A DNA stretch of 64,000 nucleotides from Escherichia phage BAU.Micro_ELP-22. The notes below the pieces were generated by a model. The model did not search any database and had not been told where the DNA came from. It saw only the letters and a program-made list of their open reading frames with translations. Shown here piece by piece: positions 12,771 to 30,117 of this stretch. The stretch's first letter is position 1. Every line of letters starts with the position of its first letter. The position numbers were made by a program, and so were the translations under genes. The DNA is taken from sequence record OR699282.2; one strand, given 5' to 3'.

Positions 12771-12796
12771 CACCCACCGATTCTTTGTGATATAAT
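12767..12796 (+). promoter_or_regulatory. sigma70-like promoter with extended -10
   Basis: TTGACA (12767-12772), 18-nt spacer, TGaTATAAT (-10 hexamer 12791-12796); followed by inverted repeat CCCTTTA/TAAAGGG (12796-12818) in the leader. Confidence 0.6.
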
Positions 12797-26629: not shown

Positions 26630-26640
26630 TAAACCAAAGG

Positions 26641-26670
26641 ACGGGATATAATATCTCGTCTTTTTTTTTG
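26641..26670 (+). terminator. rho-independent terminator
   Basis: GACGGGAT-ataat-ATCTCGTC hairpin (one G-U pair) followed by T9. Confidence 0.65.
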
Positions 26671-26681
26671 TCTGGAGATAT

Positions 26682-27530
26682 ATGAAACTTTATCTAATCG
26701 TTGACTACAGTAAGGGTTATTATGACTACGCAGAAGAATCTGAAGGGTATTGCTCGTCTACTAATGTCAATGTACGCACCAGTAGTACACATGAGCATGA
26801 ATCTATTACAAACCTAAAAGATTTCATCGCATATCGAGCATTTGAAAAGAATTTCTGTCGTAGTAGATATTCGAAGTTTGAGTACCCGTTAATTGATGTT
26901 CCTGATGAATTGATGTTCCAGTTAATGCTCACTGGAGTACAAGATTATGATTACATCGCGTACAATCACATTACTAAGAAAATTTATATCGGTACGTCAA
27001 CACATGACATTTCTATGTATGCATCATGCCCCGATGATCGAATGAATGATAGAAAATCATACTATAGTGGATCAGTTGGTTCAAATGATTCATTAAATAA
27101 AAATTTATTCTTTGAGTACGAGTTTGATAATCATCGAGGGAAAAAAGACCGAGAAGATTATTGTACTGAAATTGATAGTACCAATGGATATGAAGAAGTG
27201 AAAGAAGCGATAATGCCATATATCCTTGACAAGTACTACAAAGATTTTCAGTACTGTAGTAATTTTCTAATCCGAAATTCTATCATAATCGGTCGTCAAA
27301 GTACTGCATTCTCTAAGTACTACAATGATTCCCCTGTTGCTGAAAATGAAAACTGTAATATTCTCTCAATCCCACGTGAAGATATGGTATTCATGTTCAC
27401 ATCTTTCATTGAAGATGATGAGTTGTATGTAAAAAACAAGCACAGGTTCATGCCAAGTAAGATTGAGGTTATGAGAAGCTTAAGTGCAGATATCTTAACT
27501 AATTTCACTGAAAAAACAGAATACAACTGA
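26682..27530 (+). CDS. hypothetical protein with FQ-like motif
   Basis: 282-aa ORF; motif VPDELMFQLMLTGVQDYDY in N-terminal third. Confidence 0.55.
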   Translation: MKLYLIVDYSKGYYDYAEESEGYCSSTNVNVRTSSTHEHESITNLKDFIAYRAFEKNFCRSRYSKFEYPLIDVPDELMFQLMLTGVQDYDYIAYNHITKKIYIGTSTHDISMYASCPDDRMNDRKSYYSGSVGSNDSLNKNLFFEYEFDNHRGKKDREDYCTEIDSTNGYEEVKEAIMPYILDKYYKDFQYCSNFLIRNSIIIGRQSTAFSKYYNDSPVAENENCNILSIPREDMVFMFTSFIEDDELYVKNKHRFMPSKIEVMRSLSADILTNFTEKTEYN

Positions 27531-27560
27531 GACATACCATAAGTTTATGATATAATGTAA

Positions 27561-27594
27561 GGTGACAGCAGAATATGTTGTCGCCTTTTTTTTT
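27561..27594 (+). terminator. putative rho-independent terminator
   Basis: GGTGAC...GTCGCC hairpin (one G-U pair) followed by T10; preceded by TGATATAAT at 27548-27556. Confidence 0.5.
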
Positions 27595-28132
27595 AATCCT
27601 GAAAGGTTCCATATGGAAATGATTAAAGCCTAATCCACTCGAAAAGTAGAGGGTAGATGAGTAGTCCTTTCAGTACGAACAGCAAATGAAACCCGTTAGA
27701 TGATGGCATAGTTTGAACCACTCACGGCAATGCGGCTGTATAAAGAACTCCAATAGGATAAAGAGAGTTCCTCGATAGACATATAAGGATCGCACCTTAC
27801 CAATTATCTAAGGGAGATTTCATGAGAAATTTGCGGTCGTAATTTATACAAAATAGTTGCGTCCAAAATTCGTGAAATCAAATACAAGTACTGGTCATAT
27901 GGTATTTGTATTATGTGTCGGGATGTTTAAGACCGACGACCGTTGCTACAAGAACCGCGATAGAGAGAAACAGAGCAACCCGCTTTCGTCTCGTAAGAGA
28001 ATTCGTGATATGAACTATGTGAAGGCCACCAGCGTCAAACTTTTTTGTTCTTTCCCCTGCGGGGGGATGAAATATGCTCAAGCAAACCCCGTCAATATTA
28101 ATTAAAAGAAAATAGTACTTGTAGAATTAGAC

Positions 28133-28753
28133 ATGCGTAGCATGGTAATTCTACTGATGTTGATGGAATCAACGTCACGTATATTCATTGATGTTTCCAT
28201 AGGAATAATGATGGCATTTATTAGAAAACAAAAAACTTTTACCTATAAGACTTTGGATTTTGTTGATTGTGAAAACCAATTACAAGATGAAGATAACTTT
28301 ACAGGATTTGTTGTTATTAAAGAAAAAGGATGCATTTCGTATATAAAGGAATTACAGAACGGCATTGAAGTTACTTCAGTCAAATTACTTCCTACACAAA
28401 AACCAACAATATTAAAAGCACAGTATGGTAATTATTTCGAGGAAAGATATAGTAATAATTTAATAAGTGTTAAGGCTCATATTATAAAAGGAGAACTAGA
28501 AGGAGAATATAGAAAATACAACCCACAAGGAAAATGTGTTTGGGTTAAATACTTCAATTCAGGAAATGATGTAACATCTGAAATAATTGAGTTTTTAGGT
28601 TTAACATGTACCCCTGAAACTCTTCATGATTACAAATTTAATACTGAAGAAGAGTTTAATCTGATGATGCGTTATGGTTCACATTTTAAATTTTTATATG
28701 AATATAACATTGACAGTAGTACTTTTGATAAGATAGTACAGAACTGTCTCTAA
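28133..28753 (+). CDS. hypothetical protein
   Basis: 206-aa ORF; true start may be the internal ATG at 28208 or 28211 after AGGAATA. Confidence 0.5.
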   Translation: MRSMVILLMLMESTSRIFIDVSIGIMMAFIRKQKTFTYKTLDFVDCENQLQDEDNFTGFVVIKEKGCISYIKELQNGIEVTSVKLLPTQKPTILKAQYGNYFEERYSNNLISVKAHIIKGELEGEYRKYNPQGKCVWVKYFNSGNDVTSEIIEFLGLTCTPETLHDYKFNTEEEFNLMMRYGSHFKFLYEYNIDSSTFDKIVQNCL

Positions 28754-28769
28754 CAAAAGGAATTATATA

Positions 28770-29291
28770 ATGTCGAAGAAGGATGCTTCGAAAAAACATT
28801 CAGTACATTTTAGTACTGGTAAAGATAACTGGACAACTCCAAAAGATTTCTTTGAAGAGTTAGATGAGTTATGGGGATTTACGCTTGATGCTGCTTGTGT
28901 TGATGAGACTGCATTATGTGAGAATTATTTTACACCAAATGATGATTCTCTTTCACAGGATTGGGGAAAGAATATAGTTTGGTTGAACCCTCCATATAGT
29001 GATTTGAAAACATGGTTATCTAAAGCAGTAGATGCGTATAATAAAGGAGCAACTGTATTAATTCTTGTACCATCAAGAACGGATACTATAGCCTTTCAGG
29101 ATTATGCTGCGAAAGTTTGTGATTGTATTTGTTTTATTAAGGGAAGGTTACGATTTGGTATCCCAGAAGAACCAGAGAAGAAAACAGATTCAGCACCATT
29201 TCCTTCGTGTCTGATAGTACTGGATAAGTACTTAACCACTGCTAAAATCAATTATCTTAAATCTCTTGGATTGGTGATGAAGAATTTATGA
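28770..29291 (+). CDS. DNA N6-adenine methyltransferase (phage Dam family)
   Basis: WTTPKDFFEELDELWGFTLDAACVDE, catalytic NPPY (VWLNPPYSD), LVPSRTDT and PFPS motifs typical of the phage N6A-MTase family. Confidence 0.8.
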   Translation: MSKKDASKKHSVHFSTGKDNWTTPKDFFEELDELWGFTLDAACVDETALCENYFTPNDDSLSQDWGKNIVWLNPPYSDLKTWLSKAVDAYNKGATVLILVPSRTDTIAFQDYAAKVCDCICFIKGRLRFGIPEEPEKKTDSAPFPSCLIVLDKYLTTAKINYLKSLGLVMKNL

Positions 29292-29821
29292 AAGAAACAT
29301 GCGTATTAACTTTTGGACGTGTTAATCCCGTACATCGTGGACATGGTTTAGTTTTTGAAAAGGCCAAAACATTACAAGAACAGTACAATGCTGATTTAAA
29401 AATATATCTAAGCACCAGTACTGACAATATAAAAAACCCACTCCCACCTGAACTAAAAATGTATTATACAGAGGGATTTTATCCTTCAGTGCAAGAGAAC
29501 ATCTACACAGAAGACAATCTGTTTGATATAATGAGAGAACTGGATGGAAAGTACTTAGATGTTCTTTTCATATGTGGTTCTGACCGTATTGATTCTTTTC
29601 AAAAAACTCTTGACATGTACAATGGTAAGTTGTATAATTTTTGTAGTATAAAAGTAATTCAAGCAGGTATTGACCGTAATGTAAGTCAATATAGCTCAAC
29701 ACAAATGCGTAACTTCGCAAAAAATGAAGATTTTGATAGTTTTCGTGAGTTTTTACCTGGAAATGACGAGAACTTAAAAATACAATTATTTGAAGACGTT
29801 ATAAAATACATGAGGAAATAA
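29288..29821 (+). CDS. nucleotidyltransferase, NMN/NaMN adenylyltransferase-like
   Basis: N-terminal HxGH motif (FGRVNPVHRGHG) and C-terminal SSTxxR-type motif (YSSTQMRNF) of the cytidylyl/adenylyltransferase fold; start overlaps MTase stop. Confidence 0.55.
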   Translation: MKETCVLTFGRVNPVHRGHGLVFEKAKTLQEQYNADLKIYLSTSTDNIKNPLPPELKMYYTEGFYPSVQENIYTEDNLFDIMRELDGKYLDVLFICGSDRIDSFQKTLDMYNGKLYNFCSIKVIQAGIDRNVSQYSSTQMRNFAKNEDFDSFREFLPGNDENLKIQLFEDVIKYMRK

Positions 29822-29823
29822 TT

Positions 29824-30117
29824 ATGTCAGTACTGTTCAAAACCAATCCAGTACTTTGGGATCAAAATGAGCAATCAGGATTTCGTTCCATCCATGTTGA
29901 ATACAAAGGTAATACTGTAGTTGCAATTATTGCTAACAAAACTCTAGGAAACTGGACTGCACAGGTTGTTCCTATGGGATATTCTTACACATCTGATGAG
30001 GTTCAATTCCTGGCTGAACTATATCGTCAAGTGCCGTTTATCATTAATGTACTAGAAGGTAATGATACATTATCACATGCAGATGTGATTAATTTTCTTG
30101 GAAACTTGCATGTGTGA
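29824..30117 (+). CDS. hypothetical protein
   Basis: 97-aa ORF. Confidence 0.5.
   Translation: MSVLFKTNPVLWDQNEQSGFRSIHVEYKGNTVVAIIANKTLGNWTAQVVPMGYSYTSDEVQFLAELYRQVPFIINVLEGNDTLSHADVINFLGNLHV

Follow-up and report, generated by a model that had tools for sequence, protein, structure and literature searches.

The locus and its flanking genes

We analyzed a 64,000-nucleotide (nt) stretch of the genome of Escherichia phage BAU.Micro_ELP-22 (OR699282.2; hereinafter the window), in which an earlier reading of the DNA alone, made without database searches (hereinafter the sequence-only reading), had singled out positions 27597-28132 as an island poor in open reading frames (ORFs), enriched in GC, and potentially coding for a structured non-coding RNA. 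The window comes from an Asteriusvirus jumbo phage, and a blastn search with a 1-kb query from the locus showed 99% identity to Escherichia phage vB_Eco_slurp01 (positions 135199-136197; hereinafter slurp01). The evidence presented below makes it close to certain that a large, pseudoknotted RNA is encoded at this locus.

Between the stop codon of the upstream gene, which codes for a protein of 282 amino acids (aa) and ends at 27530, and the likely next start, an ATG at 28208, there are 677 nt with short, non-conserved ORFs only, just as the sequence-only reading had described. The claimed GC enrichment is likewise borne out, with a GC fraction of 0.375-0.455 in 200-nt segments across 27600-28099 against 0.28-0.35 in both flanks, and the GC-rich hairpin to which it had drawn attention, CCCCTGCGGGGGG, is found with a small shift of coordinates at 28054-28066. 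The 82-aa ORF that it had dismissed starts with TTG, and its frame is broken in all homologs outside Asteriusvirus. Small coordinate adjustments aside, that description of the locus was accurate. The gene following the element codes for a 181-aa protein with a full-length match to phrog_16210, a family for which no function is known. The start at 28133 assigned to it by mechanical ORF calling is probably wrong: the PHROG profile, the annotation of slurp01, and an AGGA ribosome-binding site agree on the ATG at 28208.

A multi-copy family in RaK2-like jumbo phages

With the 536-nt intergenic segment alone as query, blastn searches retrieved 61 phage records, all of them RaK2-like jumbo phages (Asteriusvirus, Eneladusvirus, Mimasvirus, the Munch-like Salmonella phages, the Xanthomonas phages XbC2 and XaC1, and the Klebsiella phage fENko-Kae01), with copies at 4-5 separate places per genome. 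Profile searches additionally recovered diverged copies in RaK2 (E-values 1e-48 and 4e-32). Thus, while the structured RNA of the sequence-only reading stands, its single RNA is to be refined to one member of a multi-copy family, with lengths of 470-610 nt and invariant joining blocks. The paralogs fall into several types, denoted A to F below; the window holds an A-type member and no other copy within its 64 kb. In slurp01, further copies lie at 29460-29947 (B type) and ~188021-188569, and an additional paralog type was seen in phage 121Q (our locus L131).

Within Asteriusvirus, the 536-nt segment is 97-99% identical, as against ~93% for the 1-kb query that includes the coding flanks, indicating that the non-coding part evolves more slowly than its coding neighbors. 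In other genera, only positions 27-521 of the query are aligned by blastn (~70% identity) and the flanks are not detectable. Copies of the same type from different genomes share a mean identity of 80%, whereas different types within one genome share a mean of 68%; therefore, the paralogs predate at least the radiation of Eneladusvirus and Mimasvirus.

Comparative evidence for a folded plus-strand RNA

We prepared two MAFFT alignments of the family, A2 with 32 members and A3 with 36 non-redundant members. RNAalifold predicted 53 pairs from 32 members, 27 of them with compensatory double changes; this set, together with helices and pseudoknots read off the alignments, constitutes the A3 model of 99 pairs in 18 helices. 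As controls, we used shuffles and register-shifted pairings, in which the partner strand was slid. An independent count on A2 found 97.7% of the cells paired, compared to 80.1% in the shuffles and at most 48% in the slid pairings. For A3, the corresponding values are 89.7%, 72.2%, and 37-44%; 72 pairs change on both sides (52.8 in shuffles), and there are 566 compensatory cells (180 in shuffles). The observed alignment exceeds all 500 shuffles on all five measures, including two that rarely exceed shuffles where there is no true structure, and helices 4, 5, 14, 15, and 16 are 100% paired. Folding with covariation against homologous phages, which the sequence-only reading had suggested as a check on its structured-RNA interpretation, hence supports that interpretation across 18 helices, pseudoknots included.

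The alignments also identify the strand. Every change in the C/G hairpin near the 3′ end (helix 18) is from C-G to U-G, which is compatible only with a plus-strand RNA, and several other pairs likewise show no variation but C-G to U-G or A-U to G-U. Since on the other strand such changes would be C-A mismatches, the fold belongs to the plus strand.

We next consider the reading that the element is not an RNA, being either a repeated DNA element (e.g., a mobile repeat or a region bound by proteins) or an unrecognized protein gene. Its occurrence in multiple copies and the small hypothetical proteins that some depositors have annotated across it speak for such a reading. However, none of the six frames of the 32 aligned members has fewer than four stop codons, and across the 82-aa ORF, relatives outside Asteriusvirus show 4-11 indel runs of a length not divisible by three. 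With frame-shifting indels and no frame open in relatives, a protein-coding gene was rejected; neither a coding frame in relatives nor an absence of conserved structure, the two outcomes named beforehand as fatal to the RNA interpretation, was encountered. Furthermore, the compensatory changes with their G-U asymmetry point to a folded plus-strand transcript, the copies keep their synteny from genus to genus instead of being scattered, and they have no terminal inverted repeats. We therefore hold it very improbable that the element is anything other than an RNA. Between one and four small hypothetical proteins are annotated across copies in phages JP4, E9.1, SHEFM2K, WPEC3, WPEC5, and the SD-series, as are g159 and g160 in Yen9-04 and ORF014w in RaK2. 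Because every frame is broken in homologs, these are probably spurious gene calls, and the family corrects the database records that place hypothetical proteins across it.

Searches with the 4227 covariance models of Rfam 15, a further check that had been suggested, recovered no known family: at gathering thresholds the whole window gave no match, whereas relaxed searches (E-values up to 10) gave a single chance-level Hatchet match within 27597-28132 and nothing recurrent over the element at 12 homologous loci, with no recurring match to any Rfam ribozyme family. In agreement with the failure to discern a cloverleaf by eye, ARAGORN found no tRNA or tmRNA gene in the window; moreover, the 5′ and 3′ ends of the element are not complementary, and the loop of its GC hairpin has 3 nt. 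A group I intron was rejected, as the element is intergenic, has its own promoter, shows different neighbors at each copy, and gives no Intron_gpI match; the strand order of its 3′ pseudoknot (X, Y, X′, Y′, then a hairpin) is not that of the group I core (P3-P7 with P8). The sigma-factor gene upstream of the B-type copy appears complete, judging from its C-terminal sequence. Bacterial RNase P RNA was rejected for want of a match to any RNaseP model, and a resemblance noticed by eye (e.g., ACAGAGCAACCCGC) did not extend further; no covariance-model match places the element in the ROOL, GOLLD, or OLE families. Other features noticed by eye, namely a hammerhead (CUGAUGAG), RNase P CR-II with CR-V, a tmRNA tag frame, C/D-box kink-turns, and CsrA-type GGA loops, failed on alignment inspection or against Rfam and are not claimed. 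As we also found no description of the element in the literature on the RaK2-like clade and on phage structured RNAs, it appears to be an undescribed RNA class.

Architecture of the RNA

The structural parts of the window copy are collected in Table 1. The first domain is a three-way junction with the conserved joiner AGAUGAGUAG. Two of the pseudoknots, PKa and PKb, are well supported by counts on the alignment. In PKb, the partner strand lies ~110 nt downstream of the loop of the long hairpin, and the two change together (e.g., UUCAUG/CAUGAA and AUUGUA/UACAAU). A third, putative pseudoknot, PKc, was recognized by inspection and rests on a direct reading of the sequences, in which loop and partner co-change through at least six distinct pairs (AUCGCA/UGCGAU, AUACUA/UAGUAU, AUGCAU/AUGCAU, AUACA/UGUAU, AUAAC/GUUAU, and GCAUA/UAUGC). 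On the MAFFT alignment, where this variable stretch is misaligned, PKc is 44.6% paired, and an alignment-free test, which was badly anchored and not discriminating, gave a mean of 5.3 for own-sequence and 5.1 for cross-sequence pairings.

One structural part, the H8 module, changes its place within the family: the A, B, and D types carry it on the 5′ side of the long hairpin and the E type on the 3′ side of the AACCCGC block, and the F type and a copy from an Escherichia coli genomic island (see below) have it in both places. At the 3′ side, the order is a first CGUCAR site, the U-rich tract, the C/G hairpin, AUGAAA, and CAAAYCYCGUCAR, after which conservation ends.

Table 1. Features of the RNA locus in the window, and of the E. 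coli island copies (last two lines)
Feature	Position	Strand	Remarks
Promoter	-35 TGAGAC 27528-27533; TG-extended -10 TGATATAAT 27548-27556	+	17-nt spacer; top promoter-like site
Hairpin + U9	27559-27594	+	Terminator-like; between -10 box and conserved core
Conserved core of structured RNA, A-type member	27595-28101	+	nhmmer vs family profile: 382 bits, E 7e-115
Domain 1, three-way junction	27599-27673	+	H1, H2, H3
H1	27599-27606 with 27666-27673	+	Helix 1: 96% paired, 4 covarying pairs
H2 hairpin	27607-27618	+	Helix 2 covaries
H3 hairpin	27630-27656	+	Conserved loop GAAAAGUA; helix 3 covaries
Domain 2	27679-27739	+	Invariant blocks GAAACCCGUUAG and CACGGCAAUGCGGC
H4	27679-27683 with 27735-27739	+	Helix 4: 100% paired, 3 covarying pairs
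H5	27693-27696 with 27724-27727	+	Helix 5: 100% paired
H5b	27704-27706 with 27718-27720	+	Within domain 2
H6 variable hairpin (GAACU with AGUUC)	27745-27770	+	Helix 7: compensatory changes in 5/5 pairs, 95.6% of cells paired
H7 hairpin	27784-27788 with 27795-27799	+	Loop AUCGCA 27789-27794
PKc (putative), H7 loop AUCGCA with UGCGGU	27789-27794 with 27832-27837	+	By inspection; invariant UAAGGGAG between
H8 module	27838-27861	+	Family consensus ACAAUAUAGAUCCGUCCAAAAUUUGA; only 59.5% paired in MAFFT alignment
Long hairpin HL	27881-27891 with 27902-27912	+	Helix 11: 89.5% paired, 10 covarying pairs
PKb, HL loop UCAUAU with AUAUGA	27895-27900 with 28008-28013	+	92.6% paired, 4 covarying pairs
Hairpin Hs (GUCGG with CCGAC)	27917-27937	+	Helix 13: 89.7% paired, 5 covarying pairs
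3′ core	27942-28013	+	Contains CGACCGUUG, GAUAGNGAGAAAC, CAACCCGCUU; helices 14-16, 4-5 covarying pairs each
PKa, GUUGC with GCAAC	27942-27946 with 27975-27979	+	Family form GUUGY with RCAAC; crosses H10
H9	27956-27960 with 28003-28007	+	In 3′ core
H10	27963-27967 with 27983-27987	+	Crossed by PKa
H11	27990-27992 with 27997-27999	+	In 3′ core
Site 1, CGUCAA	28033-28038	+	First of two direct-repeat motifs
U-rich tract UUUUUUGUUCUUU	28041-28053	+	From alignments
C/G hairpin, UUCCCC-UGC-GGGGGG	28052-28066	+	Helix 18: 97.2% paired; then conserved AUGAAA
Site 2, CGUCAA	28090-28095	+	Inside conserved CAAACCCCGUCAAUA; family conservation stops ~6 nt beyond
82-aa ORF	27857-28105	+	TTG start; open only in Asteriusvirus A-type copies; spurious
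Type-specific leader with local hairpins	28102-28207	+	Runs to ribosome-binding site and ATG 28208 of next gene
Island copy, LR-29-1	L188:11963-12545 (NZ_AP027515.1 ~3478971-3479553)	-	Full-length
Island copy, EEC_W5	L189:7001-7540		Full-length

Transcription signals and RNA ends

The promoter of the window copy, whose -35 box shares nucleotides with the stop codon of the upstream gene, places the predicted start of the RNA near 27563, and the same layout (TGAAAC or TGAGAC, 17 nt, TGnTATAAT) was found upstream of every family member. Strong promoters of this kind (-35 boxes such as GGGACA, TGAACA, or GAGACA, ~17 nt, TGnTATAAT) recur on the plus strand of the window, where they precede many genes (24088, 25848, 33632, 37518, 41129, 43379, 48833, 58070, and others); in several cases, e.g., at 12788, 25848, and 58070, a hairpin comes right after the -10 box or an inverted repeat extends over the promoter. 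As extended -10 boxes recur, many of them behind a related -35, this is the ordinary strong promoter type of the phage.

The sequence-only reading had placed a terminator at 27561-27594. A hairpin (27559-27587) followed by a T-run is indeed present, but it lies downstream of the element's own promoter and, consequently, is probably the 5′ stem-loop of the transcript; it may also stop read-through from the upstream gene. All A-type orthologs show this succession of promoter, hairpin with U-run, and core, and the E type has a hairpin without a clean U-run; in the B and D types and most C-type copies, the core starts ~7-10 nt past the -10 box with no interposed hairpin. A second clean intrinsic terminator is seen at 26636-26664, between genes for 101-aa and 282-aa proteins, and terminators between co-directional genes are frequent in the clade (e.g., in the annotation of GAP32).

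These signals are pertinent to a reading of the element as a cis-acting leader, in which the nascent RNA would modify the polymerase or switch an internal terminator and thereby allow read-through into the downstream operon, by antitermination or attenuation in the manner of HK022 put, EAR, or a riboswitch. The element is always directly behind a strong promoter, and most copies are co-oriented with the next gene, which starts 90-160 nt further on. A hairpin before the U-tract has the shape of a canonical intrinsic terminator inside the element in types C, E, and F, in a RaK2 copy (L187), and in the copy of the E. coli island; that of the E type uses the first CGUCAR site as one arm (GUCAGA with UCUGAC), and the G-run of the C/G hairpin has two potential partners, the C-run before it and the CYCYC after it. 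No terminator precedes the next gene in the A, B, and D types, and in these genomes intrinsic terminators punctuate co-directional genes. Against this, a structure of ~500 nt with several pseudoknots is far larger than known cis-acting antiterminators or riboswitches; the downstream genes are unrelated between paralog types; in the E. coli island there are ~700 nt of unannotated DNA between the RNA and the next gene; and strong conservation persists past the terminator position. On balance, we consider a cis-acting leader unlikely, albeit the main rival to the reading favored below. Even as no more than a long leader, the element would exceed in size any other conserved cis-acting transcription element of a phage known to us.

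The CGUCAR motifs

The two CGUCAR sites carry the same variant of the motif, which is also shared by nearly all paralogs of one genome lineage: CGUCAA in all four Asteriusvirus types and in the Munch-like phages, and CGUCAG, with two exceptions, in Eneladusvirus, Mimasvirus, and their relatives. In RaK2, one copy has CUUCAAG at both sites and the other CUUCAAG followed by CUUCAA. No conserved complement to the sites (TGACG) was found in cis. From the lineage-wide sharing of the variant and this absence of a cis complement, we infer that the sites are recognized by a factor encoded in the same genome, which might be a nuclease, a binding protein, or an RNA.

Alternatively, the element could be a self-processing ribozyme that cleaves, or cleaves and ligates, at the two sites, either freeing the RNA and defining the 5′ end of the downstream mRNA or excising a 55-100-nt segment. 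Such activity would be consistent with two identical short motifs that bracket a discrete segment and change together, and with invariant single-stranded joiners and pseudoknots that resemble a catalytic core. Yet, no Rfam ribozyme family was matched even by the relaxed searches, and a lineage-wide change of motif, with no guide in cis, fits a trans-acting factor better than self-recognition. We accordingly think self-processing decidedly improbable.

Distribution and genomic neighborhoods

Beyond the phage records, we scanned a viral-contig collection with gapped two-block patterns, which replaced an initial 14-mer (CACGGCAATGCGGC) that had yielded mostly chance hits among the matches listed; true members were recovered on jumbo-phage-type contigs only, and the matches to a pattern built on the 3′ core were confined to contigs of the RaK2-like clade. 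A metagenome scan gave 29 members confirmed by the family profile. Two further matches (L180 and L184) were not recognized by the profile and were rejected as consistent with chance, as was the sole match among 185,579 species genomes, in a Terriglobus metagenome-assembled genome (L154). No copy of the RNA was found in a plasmid collection.

The A-type locus is syntenic in GAP32, CBB, BF, Munch, and RaK2, with a gene for a 260-290-aa protein, the element, a gene for a ~175-200-aa protein, and a Dam methylase gene in that order; in the first four of these phages, a cytidylyltransferase or nucleotidyltransferase gene comes next. In the window, a Dam-type N6-adenine methyltransferase gene (28770-29291), two genes downstream of the RNA, is followed by a cytidylyltransferase-like gene (29288-29821). 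The position of the methyltransferase is kept in all genera checked, including RaK2, and in Yen9-04 a different paralog lies directly upstream of another adenine methyltransferase gene. The B-type paralog of slurp01 is directly downstream of a gene for an RpoD-like sigma factor (LT603033.1 28430-29947, L127). The flanking genes as a whole are conserved within orthologous groups but unrelated between paralog types, and they match only families of unknown function. At the A-type loci of Mimasvirus and Eneladusvirus (L002:20500-20600, L004:2010-2110, and others), a second small, conserved, and covarying stem stands downstream of the RNA (GUAAAUnnn, a ~30-nt loop with GAACGnAACGnnAGUGAAG, and nnnAUUUAC); it is missing from the Asteriusvirus A-type copy of the window, and related AACG...GUGA motifs follow many other copies.

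In Eneladusvirus, the copies lie at roughly 30, 93, 174, and 335 kb and are syntenic with conserved orientation. Dispersed, orientation-conserved, and syntenic copies are what one might expect of replication origins, and the element could be read as such, its transcript forming an RNA-DNA hybrid at the U-tract and G-run and priming DNA synthesis, with each of the 4-5 copies acting as an origin. Its ~0.5-kb size recalls ColE1 RNA II, as does an invariant G6 run close to the 3′ end. On this reading, the E. coli island would carry its copy to exploit phage replication, and a mobile island with only the RNA does resemble a satellite borrowing a cis-acting site. However, the conserved tertiary architecture goes beyond the known needs of R-loop priming, and no iterons, AT-rich unwinding element, or initiator gene are associated with the element; we regard this reading as improbable.

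A full-length member occurs in two of 5,426 complete E. coli genomes, those of LR-29-1 and EEC_W5 (Table 1). The island copy scores 362 bits against the family profile and has its own promoter, TGTGATATAAT. It is situated within a 1.4-kb unannotated gap of a ~10-kb island inserted between ffs and ybaA. Besides a tyrosine integrase gene disrupted by IS3 and a serine recombinase gene, this island carries genes for several hypothetical proteins and a DuOB-DUF488-mSLOG/DUF4326 cassette. DNA-level matches to the phage collection are confined to the RNA region of the island, whose nearest phage relative is the Eneladusvirus C-type copy (~80% identity), and the island proteins show no similarity to the examined phage loci. 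The lone, intact island copy with its own promoter thus marks the RNA as a portable, self-contained module. The island itself may be a satellite or a defense island.

A putative stand-alone functional RNA

Taking the above together, we favor, with a probability of about 0.6, a stand-alone functional RNA, be it the scaffold of a ribonucleoprotein, an RNA-only assembly, or a ribozyme. We do so because RNAs of these kinds, unlike cis regulators, typically have such a size and architecture, because the element has its own promoter at every copy, because it is independent of any neighboring gene family, and because it survives alone in a bacterial island. Under this proposal, RNA polymerase with a sigma-70-type factor would start at the element's own strong promoter, at ~27563; the transcript would begin with the 5′ stem-loop and fold into the multi-domain, pseudoknotted body, which would be released at the position of the U-tract/terminator (28041-28053) or through cleavage at the two CGUCAR sites. 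By analogy to known RNAs, the folded product would then act in its own right rather than as a regulator of one particular neighboring gene.

Several observations weigh against a stand-alone RNA. Copies of the A, B, and D types, that of the window among them, lack a canonical terminator ahead of a next gene that starts only 90-160 nt on, and the RNA of these types may exist only as a long 5′ leader. Strong conservation continues for ~60 nt past the terminator-like position, which is unexpected of a simple terminated RNA gene. We identified no partner protein, target, or catalytic motif. The folding energy of the single sequence is unremarkable (z = -1.72 on the plus strand and -0.60 on the minus strand), and the case consequently rests on the comparative evidence. 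Finally, transcription is deduced from the promoters, and it is on the same footing that we infer the expression, ends, and stability of the RNA.

More speculatively, the stand-alone RNA might belong to a new class of large RNA machines specific to RaK2-like jumbo phages. In this tentative scenario, which we think rather unlikely, the anciently diverged paralogs, with their common core, different peripheral helices, and moved module, would act together, perhaps as a hetero-oligomeric RNA assembly or else as a ribozyme or ribonucleoprotein on phage or host nucleic acid; a co-evolving factor encoded in the same genome would recognize the CGUCAR motifs; and the intact island copy, adjacent to the DuOB-DUF488-mSLOG/DUF4326 cassette, would have been captured by the host or a satellite for use against the phage or to exploit it.

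Comparison with known systems

The closest parallels in overall form are the ROOL and GOLLD RNAs (RF03087 and RF01998), which build RNA-only homo-oligomers (PMC12286853). They are ornate RNAs, frequently found in phages and prophages. Like the element, they are non-coding, 0.5-0.8 kb long, and phage-associated, with many helices and conserved joining nucleotides. There is, however, no sequence or covariance-model similarity, and they come from Firmicutes or lake metagenomes, in contrast to the enterobacterial and Xanthomonas jumbo phages of the element. Unlike them, the element has 4-5 diverged paralogs per genome, is not beside tRNA genes, and has each copy directly behind a strong promoter and ahead of a gene. 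A further close parallel, OLE RNA (~600 nt), which forms a ribonucleoprotein with the Oap proteins, is comparable in size, in its ornate conserved structure, and in needing partners; again there is no homology, and OLE has dedicated neighboring protein genes, whereas no gene family accompanies the element.

Other systems share its position or its transcript layout. HK022 put and other processive-antitermination RNAs show the same order of promoter, structured RNA, terminator, and operon, a likeness of position only: put is ~70 nt with two stem-loops, as against ~500 nt and several pseudoknots. The ColE1 RNA II and T4 oriF/oriG primer transcripts, like the predicted RNA, are structured, ~0.5 kb long, and made from a strong promoter, with a run of G close to the 3′ end; and just as the copies of the element are dispersed, a T4-like genome has several scattered sites. 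The structural conservation of the element, however, far exceeds that of known primer RNAs.

Among jumbo phages, the related Pseudomonas phage PA5oct expresses intergenic, ORF-free transcripts of 236-619 nt, ncRNA001-004, detected by RNA-seq, two of which account for 2-5% of phage reads at some time points (PMC7318152). We considered ncRNA001, 002, and 004 as expressed homologs and rejected them: ncRNA001 and ncRNA002 do not match the family profile, and all three are without the conserved blocks and show no similarity.

Large (at least 450 nt) bacterial and phage RNAs with a conserved pseudoknotted architecture are few, among them the rRNAs, RNase P, tmRNA, group I and II introns, OLE, GOLLD, ROOL, HEARO, and raiA, and each has revealed new biochemistry or stays a prominent open problem. 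To these, the present family adds a candidate that occurs in culturable phages (of E. coli, Salmonella, Erwinia, Yersinia, and Klebsiella), for which enough covariation is already at hand to model the secondary structure in detail and which offers unusual, testable features: several ancient paralogs per genome, a module that changes position, paired motifs specific to lineages, and a bacterial genomic island with a solitary copy.

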